The notes under the pieces: model-generated
What the model was told of the DNA's origin: nothing
The model's database searches: none
What the model saw: only the letters and a program-made list of their open reading frames with translations
IMG/VR virus record: IMGVR_UViG_2558860288_000010
Length of the DNA stretch: 52,982 nt
Strand: one strand, 5' to 3'
Source: a virus
Taxonomy: Duplodnaviria > Heunggongvirae > Uroviricota > Caudoviricetes
Translations under genes and position numbers: made by a program
Shown: positions 1-51,614 of the stretch, piece after piece
Layout: each line of letters opens with the position of its first letter
Position numbering within the stretch: the first letter of the stretch is position 1

Positions 1-996
1 TTAAGCAGGGCTATTTTCAGCATTAGCTCTAACCACAGCTACCTCAACTGTGTCTTTCGCTATACTGTTGTAATAACTTTCTGTAAGCTCAGAAATAAGG
101 AAGTCATCCATCAATAATTTTATAAATAAATCCTTTGACACTTTCGTATCAAGAAGAATTTGAGTCCCATCTTCGGTAAATCTTATTTTACCTTTAAGCA
201 TAGGGTAGTTCTTACAGAAAATTATAATTTTGGCCGTTTCGATACCCCGCTGAATTACTGGAGAGGCTCTTGCAACTTTTGTTAATTTTCTTGCATATCT
301 TACATCTTGGATAAGCTCCGCTAATGCTTCAATATTTGAAACTATATTACGAGCCTCTATTGCAGCCATCCCAGACGTGGCCTCGCGAATAATCACTTCA
401 TGAAAACCAAATGATTTTTCTATAGTATCCAAATCAAATACAAATAACCCATCAGAGAATCTTAGCAATTGAAAGTTATCACTAATCCTAAAAAAATCAT
501 CATCAATCTTCTCGAATCTGGTTCTTGATTTTTTTAGAAAGAAATTTCTTCTTGAGAAAATATTAACGGGGGCCATGGTTTTATATAAAACCATTTGCTC
601 TCTCGCATCACCAATCTCAATAAGTAAGACCTTAATATTATTCACACCCTCTGTGGCAATATTATATAACTCATGATCATCAGTCTGTCTTACCTCATCG
701 AGAACTCTCAACTCCTCAGGTATTTCAAGATCATATTGATAGATGACCTTCACTCTCTCGTCTGATGCCGAAAGTTGTAATATTGACAATTCTTCATTTG
801 ATACAACATTGTCTCGGATATTGTCCATAAAAAGACTAATGAGCCCGCGTTGAGCATCTGGATCAATATCCATTTTTTTGGGGGTATTTGAATTTCTCGT
901 GAGTGCGTAGACAACTATTCCTAGCTGTGCTTGATTATCGATAAAATATTGAAACTTACGATCCAATGTTTCTTTATCATATATAATATCTGGCAT
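1..996 (-). CDS. Hypothetical 331-aa soluble protein, downstream partner of a membrane protein; candidate KwaB-like defense component
   Basis: Complete ORF with ATG start and AAGGG RBS 7 nt upstream. AT-rich. Sits 10 nt after the membrane-protein gene on the same strand; size and pairing fit the Kiwa architecture. No sequence-level confirmation possible here. Confidence 0.4.
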   Translation of the reverse strand: MPDIIYDKETLDRKFQYFIDNQAQLGIVVYALTRNSNTPKKMDIDPDAQRGLISLFMDNIRDNVVSNEELSILQLSASDERVKVIYQYDLEIPEELRVLDEVRQTDDHELYNIATEGVNNIKVLLIEIGDAREQMVLYKTMAPVNIFSRRNFFLKKSRTRFEKIDDDFFRISDNFQLLRFSDGLFVFDLDTIEKSFGFHEVIIREATSGMAAIEARNIVSNIEALAELIQDVRYARKLTKVARASPVIQRGIETAKIIIFCKNYPMLKGKIRFTEDGTQILLDTKVSKDLFIKLLMDDFLISELTESYYNSIAKDTVEVAVVRANAENSPA

Positions 997-1005
997 AGAA
1001 AACCC

Positions 1006-1650
1006 TTAATATCCTGAGTAGTAAACTCTATCATCAAGTTTTATATATTTTACTGAGTCGCCCATTTTAATTTTCTTCCTTGTTATAACTATAATCCCAT
1101 CTCTTTTTTCCCCTCCTTTGAAAACACCATCAAGTTTATAGATATGAAACCCCATCAACGCTAATGAAGGATTAGCATAAAAAAGATCTGTTTTAATATA
1201 AATAATCCCCATAACAACCAGCAACATAGCTAGAACAATTATGTATTTTGTTTTTTCGAAATCAAATGTTATTAATGGAATTACATAGGTTGCAAGAAAC
1301 GTTAAATGTTCATAATTTATACCTTCAACCTTCACAACTTCAAAAGGAATCTCGGTTGATTGTTTGATATCATATTTAAACTTAAAATACGCAACAATAC
1401 TATATAAAAAGAGGAGTGCACAAATAATAGCCACGACATTATTAGATATTAACTTTTCAAAACCTATAAACTTACATTTATCACCAAAACAGATTGGAAT
1501 ATCTATGGTGATAACTATAAAAAAGAAAAAAAGGAGTGATAATGAAAGAATATATAAATTAATCTTTCTGAAAATCATGCCTCCGCCACTATTCCTCATA
1601 TTGATTACTCCCATCATGAAACTATTACGATCATAACTGATATACTTCAT
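1006..1650 (-). CDS. Multi-pass membrane protein (214 aa), candidate KwaA-like
   Basis: ATG start. Translation has several long hydrophobic stretches (LYILSLSLLFFFFIVITI, VVAIICALLFLYSIVAYF, IIVLAMLLVVMGIIYI). AT-rich. Operon partner of 1..996. Confidence 0.4.
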   Translation of the reverse strand: MKYISYDRNSFMMGVINMRNSGGGMIFRKINLYILSLSLLFFFFIVITIDIPICFGDKCKFIGFEKLISNNVVAIICALLFLYSIVAYFKFKYDIKQSTEIPFEVVKVEGINYEHLTFLATYVIPLITFDFEKTKYIIVLAMLLVVMGIIYIKTDLFYANPSLALMGFHIYKLDGVFKGGEKRDGIIVITRKKIKMGDSVKYIKLDDRVYYSGY

Positions 1651-2174
1651 GTTTTAAATGCCACAAAGTAACACTATCCTACTCATAAAAATGCCATACC
1701 CAACAGATTTTATAGTAATTATACAATATTTAATAAGTTTTACTAAGCTACTGTTTTTATCTAAAAGATATCTCCTCTCAACTCCTAATGATAGACATAA
1801 AATATTCTCTCTATGACAGAAACAGCACTACACCGCACCCGCCTGCGGTTTTCATATCACTGAAGTTTTTCAGTTGGGATTTTTTACAAACGATACTTCC
1901 AGCCCGCGCCAGTGCTGGGGATGTACTGCGAGACAGGAACTGAAAAGAATGAAAGGAAATTCAGTTTTTTTCAGTTTTGCTATCCACCGATTCTGTTGCC
2001 AGAATACGCAACTCTTTGATGTTAAATGGATAATTAATTTTAGGTGTGATTTTTTATGAAGGATTGTGAAACAATAAAAACATAACACATTGAAATATAA
2101 TTATTTTATCTCTGTAGAAACTGAAATCCTATGACCAGACTCCGGGAACGGATCAACCATCCCCGGCGCACACT

Positions 2175-2447
2175 CTACCCGTTCTTTTGCGCAGCCAGCA
2201 GCAATTCTAAAGCCTTTTCCCGCCCCTCTGGTGGAATTGCATCAATCAGCTCTTTAACCCTTCCCTGCCCGTTCAGCGCGCTTGGGCTGACCGAATGGGA
2301 GAAAGCAACATTCATCACAAACGAGTGACCACACTCCACGTTAGAGCAATAGCAGTACACATCGTACAGCTGAGGGTGTTTTCTGTTTGTTTTACCGATC
2401 CGCGCGACTGCCTTACATGTTGGGCAGTACATTTTCATCATCTTCAT
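2175..2447 (-). CDS. Ogr/Delta-family zinc-finger late-gene activator (about 90 aa)
   Basis: Translation MKMMKMYCPTCKAVARIGKTNRK...YCYCSNVECGHSF has the C-x2-C...C-x4-C spacing of Ogr/Delta proteins. Start refined to the ATG at 2447 with an AAGGA RBS; the track ORF begins further upstream. Confidence 0.7.
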   Translation of the reverse strand: MKMMKMYCPTCKAVARIGKTNRKHPQLYDVYCYCSNVECGHSFVMNVAFSHSVSPSALNGQGRVKELIDAIPPEGREKALELLLAAQKNG

Positions 2448-2509
2448 CGTTTTATCCTTTTGCCCGCCAGAAAAAGGGATTCTGGTTCCCTGCCTCTTGT
2501 TCTGAACGT

Positions 2510-2697
2510 GTAACACTGGTAACACGCGTAACATCGTTGATTTAAATGAATTTAATCCGTTACCAGTTAACTAAATTAAGAGGTAACGCGTGGTAACACA
2601 CCGTTTTTTGTTACCACTGTTACCAGTACATATTTTTGACTGGTAACAGTGAAGAACCGCATCAGTAGCGGGTGTTACCTCTGTTACCAGTGTTACC
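2510..2697. repeat. Array of about 12 GGTAAC(A)/(T)GTTACC repeats in both orientations; candidate replication cis site (ori/crr-like)
   Basis: Counted directly: copies at 2510, 2518, 2528, 2559, 2582, 2592, 2610, 2619, 2642, 2674, 2683 and 2692, in the non-coding gap between the primase stop and the ogr stop. Confidence 0.6.
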
Positions 2698-2723
2698 TCA
2701 TAAAAATAAGACTCGCGCGATAA

Positions 2724-5411
2724 TTACTCGGGATCGGCGCTTCCCAGTACCTGCGTATTGAACTGATACACTCGCTTAACCCCTATTTCTGGCAGGCGTA
2801 TGCTGTTTTGTGTCCGCCCGTCCTCACCGGCTTTCAGCCAGCCCGCATCCACACACAACCTGGCCACCTTACGTGAATCAAATCCTTTACAGATTTCCTT
2901 CCAGCCGGACGGCAGCACATAAAACGTCACCACCGGTTCTGTGGTGTTGTCGCCTTTGTCCACCTTCCTGAACCCCATCATTGAAAGCGGCCGGTTTCTG
3001 TCATCGTACCAGTCTGCAAAACGGCTGAACTGGTTTCGCGTCATGAAGTCGCGTACCTGTTCAAGCGCGGTTTTGTCTTCCTGATTGGCCGCATGACCAC
3101 GATCGGCCATCCACGACGCCAGGCAGCATTCAGCCGCCCGGAATGCCTCACCTTCCGGCCAGCCGGTGATCCCGGCCTGAGTGGCCAGCTCCCCGGCCAT
3201 CGCCACCAGAGCAAAACGGGTAACCACACGGCCAACCTGATTCCCGGCATTTTCTGGTGTCAGTCTGCGGGTATATTCTTTCAGCAGGGTTTTCGCCTGG
3301 CGGGTCAGCTCAGGCAGATCCCCGGTCAGACAGTACAGCCAGTCGCGGAAAGGCGTGCCGTGATAATGCACCACCGACTGTTCCAGATGTTCTGCCAGGG
3401 TCTTCCCGCCACTGAAGCCGTGCAGCTCCTCAAACACTCCATATTTACCGGAATCGCTGGGGATCTGGATCATCCTGACCTCCACCCCGGCATAGGTTCG
3501 TTCACCGGCGTTGGCCGCATGTTCCACCAGTGACAGCTCTCCGGTGGACAGAAACAGCAGATTCCAGCGGTTGGTTTCTCTCACAGAACCATCCGTTCTG
3601 GCTCTGGCTTTCCCCTGCCCGTTCGCCAGCATATAGGCAATGTTTCCCGCCTCCCTTCCGTCAACCTCCCGGATCTCATCGAGCATCAGGGTCGCATCAT
3701 TGCGACGGCTCGCCGTTCCTTCCAGCGCATTGCCGGTAGCCCGCCACGTGTGCCAGAAGTCCGTACCACCGCAGACCGATGCGGCCACTTTCATGGTCGT
3801 GGTTTTACCGTCCGTCGATTCCCCTTTCAGGTGATAGCCGCCGCCACTCACGCCAACCAGCGTCAGCAGCGGTGCAGCAAAGGCCAGACTCACCGCAAAC
3901 GCCAGGCGGGCATTGCTGACACAATAACGCCCGATATTTTCCCGCCACTCGTCAGAAGTACCGCTGACGCGAAAATCCCGCCCCTGTACACTCGACGTCT
4001 GCAAAATAACCGACTGGGCTTCACGGCCAATCACTTCGTCCTGCAGGACATACACGCCGCCATGCCAGCCGGTTTTATTCACACAAGTGACTTTTCTGTC
4101 TGGTTTACACAGGGACAGGTATTCCATCAGGAAAGCTCTGGCCATCCCGTTGATGTTGATATAAGAAAGACCATTAACCAGTAACACGCGGCGCAGCTCT
4201 TCCCCGCTGCCGCCCAGCATTTCCATCGGCATAGCCCACTTGCGGCTGTTACCGTTTGTGTCCTCCCACTCCAGCAGACGCCCATAATTACTGCCGTCTG
4301 CATCACAGGTGATCGCAGTCACCCGCAGCGGACTGCAAATCTTGATATTGCGGATTTCCGTATCGCCATCAGACTTGTTAACCAGTTTGTCATACCACAG
4401 GTATTCCTTGGTCAGCCTGAATCCCTGCGGCAGCCGGGTCTGCCCTTTACCGTGTAGCGTCATTTCCTCGCGGAAGGCTTCACGCGCCCGATCTTTACCC
4501 ACCTCCTGCCGGTAATCATCCCAGTCCGCCTTATGGCGTACCGGGGGAAGTGTCACCCAGCCATCCACCGCTTTAGCGGCTTTCTCAGCCTGAATACGTC
4601 CGGTATTTTCCTTCCCGTCAGCCAGATCATTATCTCCGGCCAGAATGATCCGGGTCTCCGGCCAGCGCTTTCGTACTTGCTCCGTCACTTTCAGCAAATT
4701 GGTGGCCGCAACAGCCGCCACGATCCACCCTTCAGCCAGAAGGCTGACGGTCAGCGCCGTGGCATAGCCCTCCGTGATGATCACCTGTTCAGGTGTTTCA
4801 GCGGGTATATCGTTAAGGGCAATGAATGCGCCGGACAGCTGGCTGCCGGGTAGCAGGCTTTTATCACCGTCAGGGTTGATAAGCTGGCCACCGGTAATAG
4901 TCCCGGCAATATCCGTCAGTGGTAGCAGCAGCGAACCGGCAGAAAATGTCATCCCGGCCAGATTCAGAGATTGCGCCAGCAGGGGGAGTGAATACCCGTG
5001 TAAGCCCTTATTTGTCAGATAGATCGGCTCACCGTTCCGGCACTGCTGTCTGAGTCGGGTATACCGCTGCGCGCCCGTTTCTTTTCCTGCCGCCTTTTTC
5101 CTGGCGGGCAAAGCGGGTTTCTCCAGCATTTCAGGTAATGCAAGCACCTCAGATACCACATCTGCGGCTTCCTTTACCTTTCTCCCGGTCACCAGACGAA
5201 CCAGATCCAGACCATCACCATGACCGCACTGATTACAAAACCAGGTACCCCGTCCCTCTTTATCGTCGAGACGAAAGCGATCTTTGCCGCCACAGGCCGG
5301 GCAGGCTCCATGACGCCCCGCTGGCGGCACTTTGATACCTAAAGCAGACAGAATATGTGGCCAGTGCCCGACAGCAGCACCTGAAACCGCAGACACAGGT
5401 TGATTCCTCAC
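2724..5411 (-). CDS. P4 alpha-like bifunctional primase/helicase (895 aa)
   Basis: N-terminal zinc-binding motif CPACGG...FCNQCGHGDGLDLV, a central TOPRIM-like region and a C-terminal NTPase region. GTG start overlapping the stop of the upstream gene. Confidence 0.8.
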   Translation of the reverse strand: MRNQPVSAVSGAAVGHWPHILSALGIKVPPAGRHGACPACGGKDRFRLDDKEGRGTWFCNQCGHGDGLDLVRLVTGRKVKEAADVVSEVLALPEMLEKPALPARKKAAGKETGAQRYTRLRQQCRNGEPIYLTNKGLHGYSLPLLAQSLNLAGMTFSAGSLLLPLTDIAGTITGGQLINPDGDKSLLPGSQLSGAFIALNDIPAETPEQVIITEGYATALTVSLLAEGWIVAAVAATNLLKVTEQVRKRWPETRIILAGDNDLADGKENTGRIQAEKAAKAVDGWVTLPPVRHKADWDDYRQEVGKDRAREAFREEMTLHGKGQTRLPQGFRLTKEYLWYDKLVNKSDGDTEIRNIKICSPLRVTAITCDADGSNYGRLLEWEDTNGNSRKWAMPMEMLGGSGEELRRVLLVNGLSYININGMARAFLMEYLSLCKPDRKVTCVNKTGWHGGVYVLQDEVIGREAQSVILQTSSVQGRDFRVSGTSDEWRENIGRYCVSNARLAFAVSLAFAAPLLTLVGVSGGGYHLKGESTDGKTTTMKVAASVCGGTDFWHTWRATGNALEGTASRRNDATLMLDEIREVDGREAGNIAYMLANGQGKARARTDGSVRETNRWNLLFLSTGELSLVEHAANAGERTYAGVEVRMIQIPSDSGKYGVFEELHGFSGGKTLAEHLEQSVVHYHGTPFRDWLYCLTGDLPELTRQAKTLLKEYTRRLTPENAGNQVGRVVTRFALVAMAGELATQAGITGWPEGEAFRAAECCLASWMADRGHAANQEDKTALEQVRDFMTRNQFSRFADWYDDRNRPLSMMGFRKVDKGDNTTEPVVTFYVLPSGWKEICKGFDSRKVARLCVDAGWLKAGEDGRTQNSIRLPEIGVKRVYQFNTQVLGSADPE

Positions 5412-5818
5412 AGCAGTCCCCCCTGGTCTTCCGGTTTCACAAACTCAAAATCTTCAGGGAGATCTCCATCAGGGGCACCAAAAATAATATCCCGGTAAAT
5501 CTCCCGCATCTCTGTGACACCAAAAACTGACAGGTGAATATTTTCTGACATGAAGCCAGGTTTAAGCATTTTTTCCAGTTGTTCCCCGGCCAGCATGCAA
5601 CCAACTTCGGCACCAAATTCAGTCACCCACGGCATTTCAATATGATAAATAATATTGCTCACGACTTTTTCGTGGGTGAGTTCTATTCGTTCGCCATCTT
5701 CAATATAAACCGGTTCATTATGAACACGCTCCATTAAGGAAATGAATGCATCAGCAATGTAGTACCGTAAGACTGCTGTTCGTAAAGCATGCGCCTTTAA
5801 ATTTTGATTATTATTCAT
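5408..5818 (-). CDS. Hypothetical protein (about 136 aa), translationally coupled to the primase
   Basis: Track ORF 5408..5878 begins at TTG. An internal ATG at 5818 (MNNNQNLKAH...) is preceded by an AGGGAGAG RBS. Stop overlaps the primase start. Confidence 0.45.
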   Translation of the reverse strand: MNNNQNLKAHALRTAVLRYYIADAFISLMERVHNEPVYIEDGERIELTHEKVVSNIIYHIEMPWVTEFGAEVGCMLAGEQLEKMLKPGFMSENIHLSVFGVTEMREIYRDIIFGAPDGDLPEDFEFVKPEDQGGLL

Positions 5819-6047
5819 CGCGCATCTCTCCCTTAATTGTGCTGGTTTCCTTAACAACGCCATCCAGTTGTTCGGCAATACAGGCCACTAAAGCCGCAGC
5901 GCCTTCCGCTGAAACAGTTCTCGCTCCATTCACTGTGGGAACGGACAGGACCTCTGCAAGAAACTCACTGGCCAGTGCCGCCCGTAACAGACGACTCTCA
6001 CCCAGTTCGCTCAATATGCAGCCTTGCTTAAAATTCATGGATTTCAT
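5811..6047 (-). CDS. Hypothetical small protein (78 aa)
   Basis: ATG start with a strong GGGAGGTG RBS. Overlaps the neighbouring genes by a few nt at both ends. Confidence 0.45.
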   Translation of the reverse strand: MKSMNFKQGCILSELGESRLLRAALASEFLAEVLSVPTVNGARTVSAEGAAALVACIAEQLDGVVKETSTIKGEMRDE

Positions 6048-6247
6048 GCAATCACCTCCCCGGCACTTTTCACAGGGATACGGGCAGCAAAGCTCAGGAT
6101 AAATTCAGTGGCAAGTTTAAGGCGTGCAGCATGCTCGCAGTCTGCGATTACACGCACAGGACGTGGACGGGCATCACGGTCTGTACGGCGAACAGCCAGA
6201 AAGACAAAGGTAAATTCAGGGTGAGATAAAGCAGGGACTGTAGCCAT
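6044..6247 (-). CDS. Hypothetical small protein (67 aa) downstream of the structured RNA region
   Basis: ATG at 6245..6247; translation MATVPALSHPEFTFVFLAVRRTDRD.... It is the 3' part of the 196-aa track ORF 6044..6634, whose 5' part has no protein-like composition. Confidence 0.3.
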   Translation of the reverse strand: MATVPALSHPEFTFVFLAVRRTDRDARPRPVRVIADCEHAARLKLATEFILSFAARIPVKSAGEVIA

Positions 6248-6249
6248 AA

Positions 6250-6560
6250 TGGCAACCTCCGTTAGATAGCGGGTAACGCTACCACCGGAGTTCCTACGCT
6301 CATGGGTGGTAGCCCAGACGGGGGTAGGAATACCGGCTCTAACGGATACCGGCCAGCCCGAAAGCTGCCCCGCCTGGACTACCATAATTCTGATGATGTG
6401 GCGTAAAAAATAAAAACATGCAGTCAGCCACCACACCATAAATTTTAGGTGAGTCAAAGCTACGACACAAAAAAACACGCCTGGCGCGTGTTGTGTCGCC
6501 GTTAGATTACACGGGTTCCTACGCCCGGCTGCCGATTTTGCGGCAACCTTTAAACTATAT
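6250..6560 (-). ncRNA. Candidate C4/CI-type antisense RNA locus (satellite copy)
   Basis: Non-coding gap upstream of the small-gene/primase operon. Two hairpin-containing segments each carry ttcctacgc (6291..6299, 6517..6525), with a partly complementary gtaggaa segment between them (6324..6330), plus an 18-nt block tgccgattttgcggcaac (6530..6547) identical to 38449..38466. Strand inferred from the flanking genes. Confidence 0.35.
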
Positions 6561-6721
6561 CCCGCGCATTCCTGGTGAGGCAAGAAATTTATAACCGAAA
6601 ACTGAACATTGCCTGGATTAATTAACGCTGGCATGCTTAAGCCTCTGCTTAAAAATAGTTCTTCATTTTTCCTGATGCTGTAAACGAGACCCGCCTCTGA
6701 GCGGGTCTTTCTGTCGCGAAG

Positions 6722-7726
6722 TCAATCAGCAAACGTCAGGGCGCTCTCATCAACAGCCGCGTACAGTTCAGGTTCACCGAGTGCATAGCCTTCATTGCGC
6801 AGGTAGGAATGTACGTATTCACTGTTTTCATCATCAAACTCAGCACGAAACCACCGTGTTATCGCCTGAGTGTAAATATGCAGATTATCCAGCGTCGTTA
6901 CTGCCAGACGCTTACCCGGCATAAACGGGGGAATAAACGCAAAGCGGCCAGCAACAGAACTTGTAGCCATCTGTGCAGCATTCACATCAGCCGGGCGGTC
7001 TGCGGCATTAAATAACTTCAGGCGTTGATGTGCTGCCAGCTCTGCCCCAACCAGTACAACCAGACGAGGATCTTCACGAAACTGCTCAGCAATAAGCTCA
7101 GTAATCAGATGGTTGGCCAGAGCATCTATATTTTTCCAGGTGCCAGTCTCTCCCAGCATGACTGGCTCAGAGATGATTTGCTTTCCGTTCCCGTAGGCTT
7201 TCGCCAGTGCATGCCAGCCAATATTGACATCCTCGCCTTTTTTATTAATTTCCGGGTTTGTAGTATTTGCAATCGACACACCATTGAAACCGACCCGCAG
7301 CATGTCAAGCGCATATGCCTGGGCAAAAAAGCCCTCAACCGTTTTCTCAAACTCATCCGGCACGCCGGTATGGTAAATATGAGACATATCGGAATAGCTG
7401 ATCCGGGCGCAGGTATCCGTCTCGGTCAGAAAGAACTCCGTACCATTGATTGCCATTTTTTTGTGGAAACGGCCACCATCCACACGTCCGGTATGCAGTT
7501 CACTGGCACCAATATTGACGGCATTACCTGACACGGCGTTAACATCACGTAGGGTGATATTTTTAATAAGCCACCCGGATTCCAGAATTGAGGTACGCAG
7601 TATATTTTCAGTGGGTTCGCTTAATGCAAAGCGTCTGTTTGATTCTTCCTGATAGTTAGTGCCAGTGACGAATTTATTATGATAACGACGTGCTGCGTCC
7701 GGCCTTTCAGTTTTGAAGGCATACAT
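6722..7726 (-). CDS. P2 GpN-like major capsid protein homolog (334 aa)
   Basis: ATG with AAAGGTGA RBS. Motifs GFNGV, GW, EDPRLVVLVG and LDNLHIY match what I recall of P2-family capsid proteins. Needs an HMM or BLAST check. Confidence 0.45.
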   Translation of the reverse strand: MYAFKTERPDAARRYHNKFVTGTNYQEESNRRFALSEPTENILRTSILESGWLIKNITLRDVNAVSGNAVNIGASELHTGRVDGGRFHKKMAINGTEFFLTETDTCARISYSDMSHIYHTGVPDEFEKTVEGFFAQAYALDMLRVGFNGVSIANTTNPEINKKGEDVNIGWHALAKAYGNGKQIISEPVMLGETGTWKNIDALANHLITELIAEQFREDPRLVVLVGAELAAHQRLKLFNAADRPADVNAAQMATSSVAGRFAFIPPFMPGKRLAVTTLDNLHIYTQAITRWFRAEFDDENSEYVHSYLRNEGYALGEPELYAAVDESALTFAD

Positions 7727-7748
7727 AGCTTTTCACCTTTTTAAGTAT

Positions 7749-8621
7749 TTAAGAAAAGATTTTATTTTTGTACTCAGTAACCCGATTGTATTTCATTACA
7801 TGCTCAACATAATCCCGGTCACTTACGACTGAACGTAATACATTATTATCTGCTCGATAGTACTCCCTGTAAGCCATAGCTCTTGCCATTCCACCGTTAT
7901 TTAATACATAACGATCAGTTGGAACGCTACAACGGCTAATAATTTCACTCACAGAATCAGACAAAGATTTGAGTGCATCTGTAATAAATTTAATATCACG
8001 GACAACGTCACCGTCATTAAACACAGAAATAAAATCAGCAGGGATCTGGCCGGATTGAGGAAATATGTTCAGTAAACGCTTCTCAACTCCCTTACCAATG
8101 TAGTTAACTTCATCGGCCAGTACGCCCGGTAAAAGCTTGATTGTGCTCAGTCGGCTATGTTGCTCATTCAGCCGGGAAACGGCCAGATGGTAACACCGTT
8201 CAGCATCCGCTCGTTCAGCATGCCCCGTTTTATTCGTTTTGGCTTCAGCAATGCTACTGACGCCGTTTTTTGAGAATGTGCTTTTCCATGCAACTTCCGC
8301 ATTTGTCACTTCACGCTGCCGAAAAGATAACTCTTCCTCTTCCTGACGACACAACTGGGCATAACGGCTCAGGAGCAGGTTGATCTCATTCGCCACAGCT
8401 TCCGTATCAGGTACTGTTAACCCCGTAAGTGAATACAACTTTTCACCTTTAGCGCGCAGCTTATTCAGTGAATATATTTCAATAATACGCACAATACAGG
8501 CCGTGTCGCTATGAGTCTCTTTAAACGGGCTTACTTTATAGCTTCCTAACACGGAAACATATTCATTCTTAATTGGAAGGGATATGTATTGACTCCCCGC
8601 CGGTTGTAGACGGTAATTCAT
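7749..8621 (-). CDS. Hypothetical 290-aa protein immediately upstream of the capsid-like gene; possible scaffold
   Basis: ATG with GAGGAG RBS. Assignment rests only on gene order (scaffold-then-capsid as in P2 O-N); no sequence similarity recognised. Confidence 0.3.
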   Translation of the reverse strand: MNYRLQPAGSQYISLPIKNEYVSVLGSYKVSPFKETHSDTACIVRIIEIYSLNKLRAKGEKLYSLTGLTVPDTEAVANEINLLLSRYAQLCRQEEEELSFRQREVTNAEVAWKSTFSKNGVSSIAEAKTNKTGHAERADAERCYHLAVSRLNEQHSRLSTIKLLPGVLADEVNYIGKGVEKRLLNIFPQSGQIPADFISVFNDGDVVRDIKFITDALKSLSDSVSEIISRCSVPTDRYVLNNGGMARAMAYREYYRADNNVLRSVVSDRDYVEHVMKYNRVTEYKNKIFS

Positions 8622-8657
8622 ATAAACTCCTCATAAATGCCACTAATACTAATGTTT

Positions 8658-8858
8658 TTACTCTGAAGAATGACTATCACGCCAAGCATAGTAGTCACCG
8701 GCACGCCATCGAGACATACGACCTAATTTGATTGGTTTAGGAAAACGACCTAGAGAAATCAGTTTATAAATCCATTTATCAGTAAACAGACAATCAGATG
8801 TAATGAATTTCATATCAATGAGCGAGTCAGCAGAAGGACGATTATCAGTAAACCCCAT
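8658..8858 (-). CDS. alpA: AlpA-family transcriptional regulator / excisionase-like protein (66 aa)
   Basis: Translation ...KWIYKLISLGRFPKPIKLGRMSRWRAGDYYAW matches the AlpA signature (GRFPKP.KLG). ATG at 8858 with GAGAGGAA RBS; the track ORF begins at TTG. Confidence 0.75.
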   Translation of the reverse strand: MGFTDNRPSADSLIDMKFITSDCLFTDKWIYKLISLGRFPKPIKLGRMSRWRAGDYYAWRDSHSSE

Positions 8859-8965
8859 AATGAGTTCCTCTCTATGTATCAATCTATATCAACGAAGAGG
8901 ATTAAAACATCGTTCAAAAATATAAAAAAGGCGAGTAAGCAAAAAATACTTACCCACCAATAATG

Positions 8966-9763
8966 TTAATTATTTGTAAAAATTGGTTTTTTGAAAATAC
9001 TAGCAATCATTTTGCAGATTACTTCGAATGATAAGGGCGGTTCTTTCTTATCAGGCCAAAATTCGGCTGCTCGGGAAAAAACAAGCTTTGTTAGCGCTGT
9101 AGCATTGTCTTTTTTGACATTAGAGTTTTCTTTGTAAAGATAAATGGCCACACTCAAAACTTGATTTCGCTTTATTGCATGTCGCTCTTGTTGTGCAATT
9201 GATAGCGACTTATATACCTCCGAAGAAGAAACATCATTATTAATAATATTATACAGTTTTCGAACATCATCGCTTTCTATATAGCCATCATGCTCAAAAA
9301 AAAGCCCATCAGAATTTTTCCAGTCTATCTGAAAGAACTTTATCTCTTCTGAAAACACTTCCCCTGCTGGAACAAGAAGAGATGGGTATACTGGGAATTG
9401 CCCACTAAAATAAATAAAATCCTTCTGGATTCCTGGTGGGTATTTAAAATAACCTTTTATACGTAAAATAACTAAATTCTTGTCATTTTTTATCTCATGT
9501 ATTTTTATGAGACTATATTGACTAATATAACTATACCCCTCGTCATCCTTATCCAATGAATCAAGATGATTAATAAATTCATTTATACATCTAACTCGAT
9601 GCTTTGAGAAATTACCCTCCCTGCCAACAGATGCAGAGAATGAAAGTTCATTCTCTCCTGCCAGATAAAAAACATCCGCCTCTTCGCAATTTAGCATCTT
9701 AGCAACTTCTGCTACTTGATAATGCGTGCGAAATAGTTTCAAAGGAATGGTTTTATTAGCCAT
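8966..9763 (-). CDS. Hypothetical AT-rich 265-aa protein, translationally coupled to the integrase
   Basis: ATG at 9761..9763 overlaps the integrase stop by 8 nt. Markedly AT-rich compared with the integrase and primase. No recognisable motif. Confidence 0.5.
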   Translation of the reverse strand: MANKTIPLKLFRTHYQVAEVAKMLNCEEADVFYLAGENELSFSASVGREGNFSKHRVRCINEFINHLDSLDKDDEGYSYISQYSLIKIHEIKNDKNLVILRIKGYFKYPPGIQKDFIYFSGQFPVYPSLLVPAGEVFSEEIKFFQIDWKNSDGLFFEHDGYIESDDVRKLYNIINNDVSSSEVYKSLSIAQQERHAIKRNQVLSVAIYLYKENSNVKKDNATALTKLVFSRAAEFWPDKKEPPLSFEVICKMIASIFKKPIFTNN

Positions 9764-10943
9764 TACGATTCATTCCCTCAATAAAATCAGCATACCATTG
9801 CATCATTTCTCTGCGTCCTTCCAGATATTGAGCATGGTTATAAATTCCGCGAATAGAATTTTTATCTAAATGAGCAAGCTGGGTTTCAATCCATGCACTG
9901 TTAAATCCTTTCTCATGCAGAATTGTACTCATCGTATGCCTGAAACCATGCCCCGTAACACGCCCTGCATATCCAATACGTTTAAACACCTGATTAATGC
10001 TTGCTTCACTCATAAATTTGCTAGGATCGTTGCGTCCAGGGAACATCAGCGGGTAGTTCCCAGTTAGTTCTTTCAAACATTTGAGATGGGATAATGCTTG
10101 TTTTGGCAACGGGACAATATGGCTCCTACGCATTTTCATACGTTCTTTTGGGATCTCCCACACCGCATTATCAAAATCCACCTCACGCCACTCACCTGCT
10201 CTTAGTTCTCCTGTTCTTAGACCCGTCAGGATAAGTAAATGTGCCCCCAGCAATACAATTGGGCTTCCTGAATAAGCGTTAAGGGCAGTAAAGAACTCCG
10301 GCAGCTCGTTGGCTTTGAGGAATGGATAGTGGACTGCTTCATGTCCTTGCATCGCACTGGCAAGATCCGGTGCAGGATTGTAGATTGCTCTACCCGTTAC
10401 GATGGCATAGCGGAAAACTTCACCGCATCGCTGACGGACTTTCTTCGCTTTCTCCATAGCACCTCGTGCTTCTATCAACCTCAGTACTTCAAGTAGTTCA
10501 AGGGGCTGAATATCGGCTATAGGTCTGTGTCCAATATGCGGGAAAATGTCTTTCTCAAACGCCTCAATTATGTCTGAAGCATAGCCCTCAGACCATTTGG
10601 GAGATTTCATTTTGTGCCACTCTAACGCCACTTCTCTAAATGGGTTAAGTGTCTCGATCGCTGCGTTTAAAGCATGCTTCTTTGCTTTTTTCACTTCGCC
10701 AGGATCTTCACCAGCGACGAGTAGTTTCTTTGCGTCTTCGCGTTTTTGTCTGGCATCGGCGAGGGTGACTGTTGGATAGACACCAAAGGACAAGCGCTTC
10801 TCTTTACCAGCAAAACGGTACTTCATACGCCAGTAACGCGAGCCATTAGGTTCAACCTGAAGGTACAGGCCACCTCCATCAGATAGCTTATAGCTCTTCT
10901 CTTTTCCTTTAGCGGCTTCAACCTTGCGGGCATTCAGCATCAT
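9756..10943 (-). CDS. int: P4-type tyrosine integrase
   Basis: N-terminal arm-binding-like region (KSYKLSDGGGLYLQVEPNGSRYWRMKYRF) and C-terminal catalytic region with HGFRHT and a Tyr near the C-terminus. Likely ATG-ATG start at 10943; the track start at 11012 is TTG. Sits 165 bp from the tRNA-derived repeat. Confidence 0.85.
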   Translation of the reverse strand: MMLNARKVEAAKGKEKSYKLSDGGGLYLQVEPNGSRYWRMKYRFAGKEKRLSFGVYPTVTLADARQKREDAKKLLVAGEDPGEVKKAKKHALNAAIETLNPFREVALEWHKMKSPKWSEGYASDIIEAFEKDIFPHIGHRPIADIQPLELLEVLRLIEARGAMEKAKKVRQRCGEVFRYAIVTGRAIYNPAPDLASAMQGHEAVHYPFLKANELPEFFTALNAYSGSPIVLLGAHLLILTGLRTGELRAGEWREVDFDNAVWEIPKERMKMRRSHIVPLPKQALSHLKCLKELTGNYPLMFPGRNDPSKFMSEASINQVFKRIGYAGRVTGHGFRHTMSTILHEKGFNSAWIETQLAHLDKNSIRGIYNHAQYLEGRREMMQWYADFIEGMNRNG

Positions 10944-11107
10944 TGGGGGCACATTTCCTAGACCGAACAGAACATGCCCCCGATTGTGCCCCCAATTGTA
11001 TGTTGATTTCAAGAGATAGGGGTTGACGTCAAATGACGAAGAATCGCGTAATAACTATGTTTTTAAAGGGTTTTGTTGATTTGAGATGACTTGGAAATAC
11101 TAAGGGA

Positions 11108-11153
11108 TGGTGCCGATAATAGGAGTCGAACCTACGACCTTCGCATTACGAAT
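11108..11153. repeat. 46-bp exact duplicate of the tRNA-Thr 3' end (att site between the two elements)
   Basis: tggtgccgataataggagtcgaacctacgaccttcgcattacgaat is identical to 51539..51584. Confidence 0.85.
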
Positions 11154-11594
11154 CTGTAGCACCAATCATAACTATCTGTTTTAGCAAGCATTAACCGCAT
11201 TCACTAAGCTATAGTTGATGGCACAAACAGAAAGTTGATGCATGATGTTGTCATGTGTATGTCACAAATACGGCACAACGATCTTCAAACATGTAGCCAC
11301 ACATCCACAGAAGAGCGCAAAGCCTTGCAATCCAGTACAAAGCTTTGTGTGTCTCATTTTTGTCTCACCTTTTATTACGCAAAAAAAGATAAGCCTGAAA
11401 CCAAACGGCGCCATAGGCATGTTAACGGGAGAATTACCTACCAGGAACTTACAAACCGTTTAAATGATGTGGAAGTATTAACATGTAAAATCGGTAACGG
11501 CTGGAAATCATTCAATACTCGCACTATCAAAAGTTCACCAGCCAGCCGCAGCACGTTCTTGCATACGACGTGGCTGCGGCATATCACAAAACGA

Positions 11595-12179
11595 TTATTC
11601 CATGACAGGGATTACCGGCCACTCAACATCAGGTGCAGTTGATGTATCAACACGGTTCAGCAACACCCGATACTTTTTCCAGGCTTCCAGCAATGAGGTT
11701 TCTACCTCCGTTGCGATCTCAAGATCTACCGCATCCTGAAGTGGCGCAATATGCTCACTGGCTACCCGCATGAGGCTGTTTTTTGTTTCTTCCGCCTCCC
11801 GTATCCGAAACAGTTTTTCTGCTTCTGCATCTTTCACCCAGGTTGTGCCGTTCCACTTCTGATATTCCCCATCCGGCGACAACCAGGTGACATTTTCCGG
11901 TAACGGGCCGAGTTCAGAAATAAATAACGCGTCCCCTGATGCCACGTCATAGACCGTTTTTTCCCTGTGGTCTTCAACGAGATGCCATGATGTATCCTCA
12001 CTGTTAAAAACAGCCACGAAGCCAGCCGGAATATCTGGCGGTGCAATATCGGTACTATTTGCAGGCAGACCTGTATGAGGGGGAATGTATGCATCACCTT
12101 CACCAATAAATTCATTGGTTCCGGCCAGCAGATTATAAATTTTTATAGTCCGTGGTTGTTCACTCATTCTGAATGCCAT
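11595..12179 (-). CDS. tfa: Tail fiber assembly protein
   Basis: 194-aa ORF directly downstream of the tail fiber gene; typical size and position. Confidence 0.65.
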
Positions 12180-19858: not shown

Positions 19859-20365
19859 TCAGAGACGAACTTTTGCCGCCAGACCCGACAACATATCGAC
19901 ACCATTTACCCGACGGGAAAAGCGCTCGGTATCAATGGCAAACAGTTCACGACCATCCAGCGTCTGTCGGTAATAACTGACCGCAATATCGACCGTGATA
20001 GCATTTTCAGAAAGATTATCCTTACCCCGCGCATCCGGCGTGACAGCCTGAATAAACCCTTCAATTTCCTCAACAGTACCGCGAGCAGTACCGTTGCCGA
20101 GATACCCCTGGTAGGCCGTAAAGCGGGAACGACTGCCACTGACAAATCCAAAGCTGGCCAGCATATCCGTGTCCAGACCGTAAAATTTCACCTGACAGGT
20201 CAGTGCTTCCATCCCGTCATCCACGGGCGTGGGCGCATCCTGGGCACCAGTTCGCAGGTCAGTTTTCACGATTGTCAGCGATGGTGGCGTAAACTCATGC
20301 GCCCCCTGAATACGGATCCCCTGCCGGAAGAAAGTCCAGGCACGTAGTGTATTTTTATCGCTCAT
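19859..20365 (-). CDS. Contractile tail tube protein
   Basis: 168-aa ORF directly after the sheath gene; ATG start. Confidence 0.6.
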   Translation of the reverse strand: MSDKNTLRAWTFFRQGIRIQGAHEFTPPSLTIVKTDLRTGAQDAPTPVDDGMEALTCQVKFYGLDTDMLASFGFVSGSRSRFTAYQGYLGNGTARGTVEEIEGFIQAVTPDARGKDNLSENAITVDIAVSYYRQTLDGRELFAIDTERFSRRVNGVDMLSGLAAKVRL

Positions 20366-21831
20366 GCTGCCAGCATCTCCTCAAGCGCATAGTTATTATT
20401 CACCCGGACGCGCAAACTGATAAGTTCAGTCGGCGATTTCGGTCCAAAGTCATAGTTGATATACAGGACACCTGCCGCCATGCTCTCTGCGGTATTAAGT
20501 TCTTCATCCAGCCAGGCCCGACCGCCGAAGATGGCGCCCAGTCCGACCAGTTGTCGCATATAGGCATTAATGGTGCCGATAATGTCATCGGCATTTTCGC
20601 GATCCAGCGGACGGTCAACATACTCCAGCATGGTTTCCTGAATGCTGTCCTCGATAACATCTGCTGTACGTCGTACGGATTCAAAACGCCACTGCGGATC
20701 GGTTGCGCACAGACGGTTTCCCCAGTGTTTAAAGCCCGCACGACGGATAATGGTGGATACGTTCTGCATGTTGAGCAGGTTCGCATCGCAGTTTTCATCC
20801 CCGAGAATAAATTCGTCGATCTGCTCCACCCCGAGGATATTGTTGATGTCCTGGTTCGATTTGCTCCACCACCAGCCCTTTTCGTAGTCGATACGGGCAC
20901 GTAATCCGGCGGCAAAAGCAGAGTAAGGGCGATACACTAACTGGCCATCCGCATCGGCAGCCTGAACACGCGGTCGCAACAGTTCAGTACGGGCACCATA
21001 GGACTGACGGCGCTGTACCACCTCCTGCAACGTTGCACCGGAAGCACAGTCAACATAAGCCACCGCGCGTAATTTCCCGGCCACCGTTTCCAGGGCTTTC
21101 CCGACCGCATCGTCCTCACTAAATCCCGGCGCAATCACAATACGTGGCTGATACGTGGTAATGGATTTTGCTGATGACAGAAGCCCAATCCCTTTCAGTA
21201 TGGCTGCCCGTTTTTTTGCCCCGTCAGTTTCATCAGCCACCCGCACCACCACTGTCAGCGCATTACGCTGATCATTAATCTCTGTCAGCGCCTGTTTGAG
21301 AGTCCCCTTGTCTCCCAGACGATTAATGAGCGCGGTGCCCGCCACAGCCACAGGCGTATTTAACGGAAAAGGCTCATCTTCGCCCCCTTCCAGCTTTACA
21401 CTGAACGTTGCCAACAGCCCCTCGCCACTGCCTTCGGCCTGAACTTTGACGCCATCCAGCGCATTGACCACACTGACCACATCAGCAGGTCGCGCCGTGA
21501 TCACCCCCTGCTCATCACAGCCCAGTGTCACCGTCAGTTTGTGCGTAACGTCATCCCAGGATGCCGATGTGTTAACAGCCTGCGGGCTTTCCGTATCTGG
21601 TACCGCCGCCACCGCGTCCACCTGGATAACATTGCCAGCCCGGCCCCTCTCCTTTGCTGTGAAGTTCAGAACGTTATCCAGAATCGGCGTCCCGGTGGTG
21701 ACCGCTGCCGCACTCCCGGCAGACGACTCCGGTGCCGTGCCCACCAGACCGATAATAGCCGTCTGGATAGTGGTCACCGCCACAGTTCCCGAGGTCAGTT
21801 CAATTGTTTCAACACCATGTAACTGAGACAT
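20362..21831 (-). CDS. Contractile tail sheath protein
   Basis: About 490 aa, sheath-tube order. ATG at 21831 with GGAGAAAG RBS; the track ORF extends further upstream. Confidence 0.7.
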   Translation of the reverse strand: MSQLHGVETIELTSGTVAVTTIQTAIIGLVGTAPESSAGSAAAVTTGTPILDNVLNFTAKERGRAGNVIQVDAVAAVPDTESPQAVNTSASWDDVTHKLTVTLGCDEQGVITARPADVVSVVNALDGVKVQAEGSGEGLLATFSVKLEGGEDEPFPLNTPVAVAGTALINRLGDKGTLKQALTEINDQRNALTVVVRVADETDGAKKRAAILKGIGLLSSAKSITTYQPRIVIAPGFSEDDAVGKALETVAGKLRAVAYVDCASGATLQEVVQRRQSYGARTELLRPRVQAADADGQLVYRPYSAFAAGLRARIDYEKGWWWSKSNQDINNILGVEQIDEFILGDENCDANLLNMQNVSTIIRRAGFKHWGNRLCATDPQWRFESVRRTADVIEDSIQETMLEYVDRPLDRENADDIIGTINAYMRQLVGLGAIFGGRAWLDEELNTAESMAAGVLYINYDFGPKSPTELISLRVRVNNNYALEEMLAA

Positions 21832-21868
21832 GTCTTTCTCCAGCCATAAAAAAACCTGCCGCAGCAGG

Positions 21869-22486
21869 TCACATTTTCTGATTAGGTTTATCCGTACTCC
21901 CGCCACTGTCGCCGGGGTGGTTGTGCTCGTTAAAGATGTTGCGGATCCCGCTCATACTGCCGGTTTTGTCGGTAATTTCTGCAGAGGCACCAATATTACC
22001 CTTCACCGTCGTATCGGCGTTAATCTGCGTTTTCCCCTGTACAGTCAGGGTATCGGTGATTTCAACCGGACCATCAAGCGTACCCTTACCGGTGATTTTG
22101 TAAGTGCCTCCTTCGGTCAGGGTGATCGTCAGGGCATGAGCTGCCCGGTCATACCGGATCTCTGTGCCGTCGCTGTAACGGGTAATATGTTCGCTGTCGC
22201 TGCCCTCCGGCACGGGTAATTTCCCGGTGTTCCAGCCAGGAAACACCCGCCCGTTGTTTAACTCTCCGGCCTCCGACAACACTGTCACCGCATCACCGAC
22301 GGCATAAGGATTCGAATCAGCCCGGTTTGCGCCAGAAAAACCCTGACACAGCGGCAGCCAGGTCGTGATGATATCGCCCAGATCAACCCGGCATTTGGGG
22401 ATACCATCATGCCGGACAGAATGAATCACACCGCGTCGTACCAGATTTGCCAGTCTGCGTTGCAAATCCCCTGTAATGTCACTCAT
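21869..22486 (-). CDS. Baseplate spike protein, GpV-like
   Basis: C-terminal NEHNHPGDSGGSTDKP matches the P2 GpV signature (H.HPGDSGG.T). ATG at 22486. Confidence 0.6.
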   Translation of the reverse strand: MSDITGDLQRRLANLVRRGVIHSVRHDGIPKCRVDLGDIITTWLPLCQGFSGANRADSNPYAVGDAVTVLSEAGELNNGRVFPGWNTGKLPVPEGSDSEHITRYSDGTEIRYDRAAHALTITLTEGGTYKITGKGTLDGPVEITDTLTVQGKTQINADTTVKGNIGASAEITDKTGSMSGIRNIFNEHNHPGDSGGSTDKPNQKM

Positions 22487-23030
22487 CAGCTCCTGCCTCC
22501 AGGATAAGGTAATAGTCGTCCACATGCTGCCGCCCCGTATCCGGTGCTACTCCCAGCCAGACCTGACTCAGTGGCATAGCGGTGCGGGCGAACGGATCCA
22601 CGCCAAAAGCTGCCTCCTGGGTAAACGACACCCGCCACACCAGGTAGTCATCCATGCGAGGATCAAATTCGTCACGCTCTGCAGCAGTGAATACGGCGGG
22701 TGAAATGTGAGTCAGACCAAACTGTTGCCCGTCAATCCACTGCGTAATATCTGCTGCCGCTGTTCGCAGGAAGATTTCCGGACAACTGAGACCAGACGCG
22801 GCATCAACCACCACATAAAGATCGCACGAGAGTTCAACATTGAGTTGCCCCTCATTGCCGCCGTTCTGCTCCCAGCTGTTAATGGTGAAATACACGGCAG
22901 GCGTCACCAGCCCGGTGAAACGGGGAATATTTTTTTCAGGATAAGCTCCGGCATCACTTACCCACGTTATCTGCTTCAGCGCACTGATAACCGCATCGTG
23001 GTATCGGGCCAGAGATAAAGGTTCAGCCAT
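22479..23030 (-). CDS. Virion-associated hypothetical protein (183 aa)
   Basis: ATG start, within the head-to-tail gene block. Confidence 0.35.
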   Translation of the reverse strand: MAEPLSLARYHDAVISALKQITWVSDAGAYPEKNIPRFTGLVTPAVYFTINSWEQNGGNEGQLNVELSCDLYVVVDAASGLSCPEIFLRTAAADITQWIDGQQFGLTHISPAVFTAAERDEFDPRMDDYLVWRVSFTQEAAFGVDPFARTAMPLSQVWLGVAPDTGRQHVDDYYLILEAGADE

Positions 23031-23040
23031 TGTGATGACC

Positions 23041-23697
23041 TCATACCGATATCCTGGCTTTCACCCGCCCACGGATATCTGTTTCAAAATGGTGCATGAA
23101 AATGTCCATTGCTTCGGCAAAGGCGTTATCTTCAATGTAATTGAGCATCGGTTCATAAATATCCACCTCAGCTTCCCGGGTACGCCGGGTTTGCGGATCA
23201 CGAATAACCACCGTTCGCCGGTTCTCTCGTTTTGAGCGGGCGACTTCGCCATTTTCGAAGGTCAGTGTCGAAAGCAGACTGCCTTTAGGCGTAAACCCGG
23301 CATTTTTTACCTGTCGACGAGCTTTGATAAAACGCCCCGTGGATTTATCCCGCAGGGTATGGCGCGGGCGTAGCCGCCCGTTAATTCGCCCTTTCAGGTC
23401 TTTAACCTTAATGGCGTTGAGACCAAACCAGATCCTGAAATTATCCAGCCGGGAGCCTCTGTCGAGGCGAAAAGAGAGCAGACGGCGGCGTACCAGCCCG
23501 ATACTGCGCGGCGCCAGCCCGTCTTTCAGATCAGCCAGCGCTTTTTTGCGCAGGGTGGCAGCAGTTCGTCTGAGCGCCCGGGAGTAGGCTGCCCGAAACT
23601 GTTTTTGTGTGGCACCGATACTGTCCGCAATCTGCCAGATAGCATCCACATCAATATCGATCGGTAAATCCCGTCGCAGTCTGAATCCTCGCGCCAT
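23041..23697 (-). CDS. Virion morphogenesis / head-tail adaptor protein (putative)
   Basis: Arg/Lys-rich 218-aa ORF after the head completion gene. ATG at 23697; the track start is further upstream. Confidence 0.35.
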   Translation of the reverse strand: MARGFRLRRDLPIDIDVDAIWQIADSIGATQKQFRAAYSRALRRTAATLRKKALADLKDGLAPRSIGLVRRRLLSFRLDRGSRLDNFRIWFGLNAIKVKDLKGRINGRLRPRHTLRDKSTGRFIKARRQVKNAGFTPKGSLLSTLTFENGEVARSKRENRRTVVIRDPQTRRTREAEVDIYEPMLNYIEDNAFAEAMDIFMHHFETDIRGRVKARISV

Positions 23698-23698
23698 A

Positions 23699-24055
23699 TC
23701 AGCTCCATTGTTCAATCGGTGGCTGAACGTTTCCCGGTGCGCCATACGCCAGCGTGACACGGGTGCGCCCGGCTTCGTTCGCACCGACATGCGTTACCCG
23801 GTAGCGAATATTGTTCACCACCACCTCATCATGCCTGGACAGTCCGACAATATCCGTCGTCATCGCACTGAATGCCGGGGCGTGATTGCTGATTTCTCCG
23901 CCACCCGGAACACTGACCGGAGCATCCGGCGTTTCAAAAATCACATTCACCTGACGACATTCATTACCGATGTACAACACTGCGGGGTATGGCTGCGCAA
24001 AAAGTCGCGTTATGCGGGCCTCTGCCCGCATCAGCCGTTCATGGAAATTGCCCAT
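23699..24055 (-). CDS. Head completion / head-tail connector protein (putative)
   Basis: About 118 aa, ATG at 24055, downstream of the capsid gene. Confidence 0.35.
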   Translation of the reverse strand: MGNFHERLMRAEARITRLFAQPYPAVLYIGNECRQVNVIFETPDAPVSVPGGGEISNHAPAFSAMTTDIVGLSRHDEVVVNNIRYRVTHVGANEAGRTRVTLAYGAPGNVQPPIEQWS

Positions 24056-24384
24056 CAGTAACCGAGACGCACACACACGGTAGCATCGCTGGTTTCTGCC
24101 GCTGCCCATACGGTTCCCACCAGCGCATTGCCCGATTCTGTTGCTGTCAGCGTGGCAGTATCAGACCTGAGATATACCCGTTTTCCCTGTGTCAGTTCTT
24201 CAGCTTCTTTGGGTAATGCAAAAATCCCCGTGGTATGCAAAACACCTGAGCCATCCTGCAGAATATCCGCATGCGCCACCCCGATCAGATTGTCTTTAAC
24301 GACCAGTTCCCCGGATAAGACTGTTTTACCGCTATCGTTCACCCATTCAACGGTCGTACCGTCCTGAACATAATTTTTTGACAT
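24055..24384 (-). CDS. Small head-associated protein (109 aa)
   Basis: ATG with GGAGGT RBS, immediately after the capsid gene. Confidence 0.35.
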   Translation of the reverse strand: MSKNYVQDGTTVEWVNDSGKTVLSGELVVKDNLIGVAHADILQDGSGVLHTTGIFALPKEAEELTQGKRVYLRSDTATLTATESGNALVGTVWAAAETSDATVCVRLGY

Positions 24385-24455
24385 TTTTACCTCCGGTATA
24401 AGCGGCTCCCGACGGTGCCGCCTGAGTAAAAAAAACCGCCTGACGCGGCGGTGAA

Positions 24456-28002: not shown

Positions 28003-28010
28003 GAATGACC

Positions 28011-51538: not shown

Positions 51539-51614
51539 TGGTGCCGATAATAGGAGTCGAACCTACGACCTTCGCATTACGAATGCGCTGCTCTACCAAC
51601 TGAGCTATATCGGC
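51539..51614 (-). tRNA. thrW: tRNA-Thr (thrW-type), integration target
   Basis: Reverse complement reads GCCGATATAGCTCAGTTGGTAGAGCAGCGCATTCGTAATGCGAAGGTCGTAGGTTCGACTCCTATTATCGGCACCA (76 nt); its 3' 46 nt are duplicated at 11108..11153. Confidence 0.9.

Follow-up and report, generated by a model that had tools for sequence, protein, structure and literature searches.

Tandem integration at the threonine tRNA gene thrW has been shown experimentally with SfI and SfX, the newcomer being located next to the tRNA (PMC3306764), and tandem arrays at tRNA genes (tDNA arrays) are catalogued in Islander. The use of different sublocations of one tRNA gene by different integrase subfamilies is an established pattern as well (bioRxiv 2020.11.02.365908; Islander statistics). 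At thrW, the att core ATTCGTAATGCGAAGGTCGTAGGTTCGACTCCTATTATCGGCACCA is common to SfI, SfII, SfV, SfX, and P22 (PMC3636060). As to satellites, the P4-like elements have a cargo hotspot that adjoins cos, and Kiwa is one of its reported cargoes (PMC9122126). SatelliteFinder defines the P4-like type by an integrase plus Psu, Delta, Sid, AlpA, epsilon, and alpha, of which at most two may be missing. Here, we compare with these systems a stretch of DNA of 52,982 nucleotides from a Caudoviricetes virus record (the window, by which the whole analyzed stretch is meant), in which a P4-related satellite and a lambdoid prophage lie side by side at one thrW gene. The array is very likely explained by successive integration of the two elements at thrW, which made them neighbors by virtue of their common target.

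ARAGORN detected one tRNA gene in the window, an intact tRNA-Thr(CGT) on the minus strand at 51539–51614, which also gave an Rfam tRNA match. Its right-hand neighbor is proA (51729–52982, minus strand; annotated as such in matching genomes), a conserved chromosomal flank, and the tRNA is therefore thrW; proA is found directly right of thrW in the same arrangement in ~5,400 Escherichia coli genomes, and the DNA of the window is that of E. coli. The original prediction of an exact 46-bp copy of the tRNA 3′ end far from the intact gene was confirmed. The 46-mer TGGTGCCGATAATAGGAGTCGAACCTACGACCTTCGCATTACGAAT occurs exactly twice in the window, at 51539–51584 within thrW and at 11108–11153 as a displaced 3′ fragment, and 100 shuffles yielded no match by chance. 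The identity ends on the right with C at 11154 versus G at 51585. When written on the sense strand of the tRNA (the reverse complement of 11108–11153), the repeat agrees in every letter with the 46-nt att core published for the SfI/SfII/SfV/SfX/P22 group and given above. No third copy of the tRNA 3′ end was found inside the window. The 46-bp fragment is the distal att junction of the prophage, and the intact thrW was regenerated by the 46 bp that the prophage brought.

The DNA between the two copies (11154–51538) is a 40.4-kb lambdoid prophage with a contractile tail, as assigned by Pfam, PHROGs, and attP reconstruction. Its early and regulatory genes (CI, CII, O/P, NinB, Bet/Exo, Ant, Q, xis, and int; Pfam and PHROGs), its head genes (gpA-type terminase, lambda-family portal, and ClpP–capsid fusion), and its tail and lysis genes (tail fiber and baseplate genes, the sheath of the contractile tail, and a lysis cassette) give mosaic matches to lambdoid phages. 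All modules appear intact, and the element looks like a complete lambdoid mosaic. The integrase gene (50364–51524, plus strand; Pfam Phage_integrase only) lies beside the intact tRNA, as had been predicted, with 14 bp separating the end of its ORF from the tRNA 3′ end. The product is identical to HK542 Int at 385 of 386 residues (99.7%). An excisionase-like ORF (50068–50487, plus strand; NCBIfam TIGR01764, E 2e-7) overlaps int on the upstream side, and the same xis–int layout is found in HK542. The reconstructed attP (int side, 46 bp, and tail-fiber side) is present as a contiguous sequence (~97%) in HK75, HK542, mEpX2, HK446, and ECP1, and several phage records label the matching attP as “attP, similar to thrW and ptwF.” The attP is of the thrW/P22/SfV/SfX/HK type, and the prophage clearly belongs to the HK542/SfX/P22 group of thrW-integrating phages. 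The att junctions are flanked by two exact copies of the 15-mer CACAAATACGGCACA, one in the P′ arm (11263–11277, plus strand) and the other in the P arm (51476–51490), which is a candidate arm-type Int-binding site.

Several other features of the prophage were observed. A strong Rfam IS009 match (208.6 bits; 11638–11836, minus strand) overlaps the tail-fiber assembly gene at the left end. Three ORFs of low GC content (0.34–0.39) run on the strand opposite to that of their neighbors and look like morons. At the place of the first (33527–34624, plus strand), an OmpD/NmpC-type porin is annotated in matching lambdoid phages; the second (38896–40017, plus strand) gave a weak PADLOC match to HEC-07 (E 5e-10), and the third (44994–45896, plus strand) had no match.

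The DNA to the left of the 46-bp fragment is a P4-related satellite of ~11.3 kb on the minus strand, which covers 1–11107 and continues for 159 bp beyond the left edge of the window. Its limits were set by identity to BCE049, NCTC9100, and the source contig. Positions 1–11153 are 100% identical to the BCE049 locus and 99.9% identical to the NCTC9100 locus, and in NCTC9100 the satellite lies directly against intact thrW–proA without a prophage. The far end of the NCTC9100 satellite carries the 17-bp tRNA 3′ repeat TGGTGCCGATAATAGGA (17/17; locus 8825–8841). The source contig AASIGM020000016.1 (GCA_012360825.2) is identical to the window over the 19,763 shared bp and provides a further 1,035 bp to its left. 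In this added sequence, the distal repeat reads TGGTGC-GATAATAGGA (16/17, one base deleted) at window coordinates -175 to -160. The original prediction had placed such a repeat beyond the left edge and would have taken its absence as the mark of a decayed remnant; the repeat was sought and found. All thrW-derived fragments (the 46-bp fragment and the distal repeats) are on the same strand. The order of the source locus is paoD, lysR′, ~70 bp of an older int remnant, the 16/17-bp repeat, the satellite, the 46-bp repeat, the prophage, thrW, and proA.

The satellite integrase (9756–10943, minus strand) is of the P4 type, with Arm-DNA-bind_3, Phage_int_M, and Phage_integrase domains, and is 43% identical to P4 Int over the full length (E 6e-113). 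It starts 165 bp from the repeat, exactly the distance predicted, and the corresponding core-to-int spacing in P4 is 152 bp. The identity between the two integrases of the window is 22%, and the catalytic fold is all that they share; both give full catalytic-domain Pfam matches, and Arm-DNA-bind_3 and Phage_int_M are found in the satellite Int alone. They belong to distinct tyrosine recombinase subfamilies, in agreement with the prediction that they are of different kinds. The further claim that both elements occupy the same tRNA holds for a stack in direct orientation and is refined in one respect: their cores are nested. As an att core, the full 46-bp repeat serves the prophage alone; the satellite uses the first 17 bp of the fragment (11108–11124) as its tRNA-proximal core. 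The two integrases use different sublocations of thrW, the prophage enzyme the segment spanning anticodon loop to 3′ end and the satellite enzyme that spanning T-loop to 3′ end.

All the features by which Islander recognizes a tandem tDNA array are present, namely, an intact tRNA at one end and, for each element, its own integrase and its own tDNA fragment in direct orientation. The two-element array was thus found as predicted, each integrase being located at the tRNA-proximal end of its element. The SfI + SfX arrays share with the window the tRNA, the 46-nt att core, the int–xis module, the location of the intact tRNA beside int, and the displaced 46 bp between the elements. In contrast to these arrays, the second element of the window is a P4-related satellite with an integrase of another subfamily and a shorter, nested core, and the prophage of the window has no gtr/oac serotype-conversion genes beside attP. 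CP4-6/ptwF and the vat island occupy the same site and have also left thrW-derived fragments, but their cargo is different, and neither of them is present in the window.

Here, we propose a course of events for the formation of the array. The satellite would have integrated earlier by means of its own P4-type integrase and the nested 17-bp core, which extends from the T-loop to the CCA end. A lambdoid phage with an HK542/SfX/P22-type integrase would then have recombined its attP with thrW and displaced the 46-bp 3′ piece; this old 3′ end of thrW would already have been joined to the satellite. As each integration restores a complete target, the site can be reused again and again by different integrase subfamilies, and older residents are moved outward. 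The 17-bp satellite core lies within the 46-bp fragment, and the map therefore fits either order of arrival. The prophage may instead have arrived first, followed by the satellite, which would have entered the displaced fragment. With the full satellite core inside that fragment, this order would end in the same map; in addition, the identity of the satellite to the BCE049 copy makes it appear recently mobile. However, the only experimental precedent at thrW has the newcomer at the tRNA-proximal junction (PMC3306764). NCTC9100, with the same left flank as the source, carries the satellite on thrW without the prophage, and one later prophage insertion is the simpler account. The reverse order is conceivable and somewhat doubtful. 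Because the SfI/SfX precedent puts the newcomer at the tRNA and NCTC9100 has the satellite alone, we favor with modest confidence the order in which the satellite came first and the prophage second.

The left block could also be regarded as a decaying, immobile remnant and not as an active satellite. Its distal att repeat has the 1-bp deletion, which might harm excision, and its relatives are degraded: the primase and capsid genes are pseudogenes in NCTC9100, and the DX6 copy is truncated by IS1. However, all 12 ORFs of the satellite are intact. Its size (~11.3 kb) is P4-like, and none of cos, iterons, immunity RNAs, and int is missing. In BCE049, a copy without a single difference over 11,153 bp bears the same deletion (locus 8826–8841) beside another left flank (the vat island), and NCTC9100 has the source-type left flank with an intact 17-mer. 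This distribution suggests that the deletion belongs to the satellite attP and that identical copies integrated independently, which would imply recent mobility. A decaying remnant is unlikely, and the satellite and the prophage are presumably both mobile at present.

The flanks of the satellite point to a longer history of the site. About 70 bp immediately left of the distal repeat, in both the source contig and NCTC9100, match the 3′ end of the prophage int gene at ~80%, including the 15-mer. This segment lies at window coordinates of about -245 to -176 (NCTC9100 locus 8755–8824) and adjoins a truncated LysR gene and paoD. It is the scar of an older SfX/HK-type prophage at thrW. At the same position, BCE049 has a truncated P4-type integrase and the vat island. 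Since either the int remnant or the P4-type int/vat flank lies outside the satellite, thrW has been hit at least three times in these strains. In BCE049 (locus 1–9000 and 20154–29153), the vat autotransporter island is distal to the satellite, and on the other side a short P′ arm comes after the 46-bp fragment and leads to the glaH–lhgO–gabDTP operon, which is normally far from thrW. This strain has likely undergone a large rearrangement that had one breakpoint at the thrW array.

Repeated use of the site is evident across the species. With a 76-bp thrW query, 5,410 complete E. coli genomes gave 8,001 places, ~5,385 of them intact genes; extra thrW fragments of at least 28 bp number ~2,600 across the 5,410 genomes, and a single genome has up to four places. 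The right end of the satellite together with the 46 bp was found in 82 complete E. coli genomes, of which 52 have it joined without a break to intact thrW–proA; in the other ~30, it is displaced from thrW by another prophage. In AH04, for example, an intact satellite with Kiwa precedes a Mu-tail-type prophage, and in DX6 the IS1-truncated satellite precedes another myovirus. The three displaced comparators have a common P′ arm, which is unlike the HK542-type arm of the window. The exact satellite–prophage junction of the window is absent among 5,426 complete E. coli genomes. The particular pairing of satellite and prophage is new, and the architecture is already known and common.

The gene content of the satellite resembles that of P4 in part. 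An alpha-like primase–helicase with DUF927 (2724–5411, minus strand; Zn_Ribbon_Prim, Toprim_3, and DUF927) is 41% identical to P4 alpha in its N-terminal 320 residues. An Ogr/Delta-type zinc-finger late-gene activator (2175–2447, minus strand; Pfam Ogr_Delta) is 53% identical to the portal-adjacent regulator of ESSI2_ev015, as compared with 21% to P4 Delta. A dense cluster of GTTACC/GGTAAC iterons (2490–2711; repeat families D1 and D13, inverted repeats I1, I2, I5, and I9) lies downstream of the primase gene, between it and the Ogr gene, and is probably the replication origin or a crr-like region, judged from the position of crr in P4. At the left end, kwaB (1–996, minus strand; PADLOC KwaB, E 1.5e-125) and kwaA (1006–1650, minus strand; PADLOC KwaA, E 2.4e-83) are adjacent with 9 bp between them, which identifies a Kiwa system; at 1–1650, it sits in the cos-adjacent cargo hotspot. 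A P2-family (gpN-like) major capsid protein is encoded at 6722–7726 (minus strand; Pfam PF05125, E 1.2e-66; PHROG 70; gpN chains of PDB 7oz4 and 7jw1). The capsids of ESSI-2-like phages form the closest group to this protein (49% identical). A 290-residue protein (7749–8621, minus strand) is encoded immediately upstream of the capsid gene, at the place usual for a scaffold gene. It had no match in Pfam, NCBIfam, PADLOC, or PDB and showed no similarity to P4 Sid or Psu or to the ev015 scaffold. A 265-residue orphan protein adjoins the satellite int (8966–9763, minus strand) and was likewise without a match to any family, PDB entry, Sid/Psu, or scaffold. Matches to the core genes of the satellite at ~90% identity are found in many complete E. 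coli genomes.

Like P4, the satellite has a P4-type Int and an att core at the extreme 3′ end of the tRNA, ~150–165 bp from the int start. The alpha-like primase N terminus, a DUF5375 ORF, a CI/C4-type RNA region, and an activator of the Ogr/Delta family are further points of likeness, as are the size (~11 kb) and the defense hotspot beside cos, here with Kiwa. Unlike P4, the satellite lacks Sid, Psu, and Epsilon and has its own P2-family capsid protein; moreover, its cos differs from the P2/P4 cos, its Ogr is nearer to the ESSI-2-like regulators, and all genes lie on one strand. BLASTP at E ≤ 1 gave no match for P4 Sid, Psu, or Epsilon in the satellite, where the unassigned ORFs have no Pfam match. 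A 66-residue helix–turn–helix protein scored 20.3 bits against the Phage_AlpA cut-off of 21 and is weakly similar to P4 orf88 (E 3e-4). In terms of the SatelliteFinder components, the integrase, the alpha primase, and a Delta-type activator are present, and Sid, Psu, and Epsilon are absent. The satellite works like P4, but with three of the seven components missing, which exceeds the tolerance, it is outside the P4-like definition.

The provision of its own capsid protein, beyond mere remodeling of the helper capsid, is a likeness to the cfPICIs. The cfPICIs, however, carry genes for a complete HK97-type head module (capsid, protease, portal, adaptors, and small terminase) and use helper tails only, whereas the satellite has a single gpN-type capsid gene and neither a portal nor a terminase, so that the two are alike in function only. 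The searchable literature yielded no account of a P4 relative that encodes a capsid protein, which is not proof of novelty. We tentatively suggest that the satellite may represent an undescribed lineage of P4-related satellites on ESSI-2-like Peduoviridae (Seongnamvirus/Quadragintavirus), which would redirect capsid assembly by means of its own divergent gpN-family protein, only ~49% identical to that of the helper, and the 290-residue partner instead of an external Sid/Psu scaffold.

The cos region of the satellite gives an indication of its helper and points to a group other than P2/186. The non-coding block at 1815–1978 (minus strand) is 75–79% identical to the termini of ESSI-2-like phage records, and its core (1825–1846) is the exact 22-mer GCAGGCGGGTGCGGTGTAGTGC, which has a single copy in the window. 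At this site, 15 nt are terminally redundant in the ESSI-2 record, and it is also where the independent assembly of ESSI2_ev015 breaks off, its contig end being fused to an adapter. Positions 1–48 of the latter record (NC_049395.1) are the Illumina Nextera adapter TCGTCGGCAGCGTCAGATGTGTATAAGAGACAG joined to the genome end, a contamination of the deposited sequence. As the ESSI-2 records end between the int-side cargo and a gpD-like gene, an att site was considered for this block and was ruled out by the topology of the ESSI-2-like prophage of TK3887. There, the 22-mer is single and internal (locus 4568–4589), and the att repeat is a different 17-mer located at the two chromosomal junctions; consequently, the block is taken as cos and not att. 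On the evidence of the record termini and the prophage topology, 1815–1978 is assigned as a predicted cos of the ESSI-2 type, and this assignment is consistent with the report that the P4-like defense hotspot adjoins cos (PMC9122126). A P2/P4 cos was also sought in the satellite and rejected: the 19-mer GGCGAGGCGGGGAAAGCAC (checked on the P4 record) is absent from the window within three mismatches, and neither a degenerate 12-mer nor BLAST with the P4 cos region gave a match in the window. Nothing relevant on the cohesive ends of ESSI-2 was found in the searchable literature.

Since the cos 22-mer, the capsid protein, and Ogr all match ESSI-2-like phages, the helper is probably ESSI-2-like, and the lambdoid neighbor is a co-tenant. 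ESSI-2-like prophages are present in 29 of 5,426 complete E. coli genomes. They occur in four of the 25 best satellite-bearing genomes, as compared with 0.13 expected; the naive P value is ~8e-6 and becomes ~0.006 when three possibly clonal isolates are collapsed. BCE049, NCTC9100, AH04, and DX6 have the satellite without an ESSI-2-like prophage. From these sequence comparisons, we consider it quite likely that the helper is an ESSI-2-like phage of the P2 family.

The original prediction had left the helper role of the neighboring prophage as one that could not be judged from sequence; cos, the capsid, and Ogr give a negative answer for this neighbor. If the prophage were the helper, the tandem placement would be functional, for example, in co-induction or in situ co-packaging. 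Their physical adjacency, the intact look of both, and their common class of C4/isrK immunity RNA module speak for this reading. In the satellite, a C4/CI-type antisense RNA (6302–6389, minus strand) and an isrK-like RNA (6470–6547, minus strand) were detected by Rfam inside an Ash/Icd-like ORF region (6302–6547; RF01695, 81 bits; RF01394, 71.8 bits), and this immunity region is ~80% identical to the P4 cI region at the nucleotide level. In the prophage, a C4 RNA (38282–38367, minus strand) and an isrK RNA (38392–38464, minus strand), also from Rfam, are located upstream of the Ant antirepressor gene (37627–38235, minus strand; PHROG anti-repressor Ant). However, the specificity loop of the satellite C4 differs from that of the prophage C4, and no antisense match of at least 9 nt was found between the two elements. 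This cross-talk was assessed by exact antisense k-mers; whole-molecule RNAduplex energies were dropped because the targets contain C4 hairpins, which makes the energies uninformative. The elements have no protein in common, and the DNA that they share is the 24-nt conserved isrK stem alone. The satellite cos 22-mer is absent from the prophage. The packaging and control systems are also of different kinds: the prophage has a lambda gpA-type terminase, a lambda-family portal, a ClpP-fused HK97-type capsid, and Q control, as opposed to the P2 gpN-family capsid and Ogr-type activator of the satellite. Elsewhere, this satellite occurs without any neighbor or has been pushed away from thrW by unrelated prophages. 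A helper role of the adjacent prophage is thus highly improbable, and the two elements are adjacent through their common target gene, not through cooperation.

The significance of the array itself is small: it is a clean, fully delimited case of stacked mobile elements at a tRNA gene, in which nested cores of 46 and 17 bp let two integrase subfamilies use one tRNA. For annotation, the 46-mer marks the boundary of the prophage and the nested 17-mer that of the satellite, and adjacency in such arrays should not be taken as a helper–satellite relationship. As a by-product, a sequence-based helper assignment was obtained for a common, apparently uncatalogued, capsid-encoding relative of P4. As an element outside the SatelliteFinder definition, it would be missed by current censuses. 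If confirmed, the use of its own capsid protein would be a second strategy of capsid redirection in the P2/P4 paradigm, and the census of E. coli satellites would become larger.
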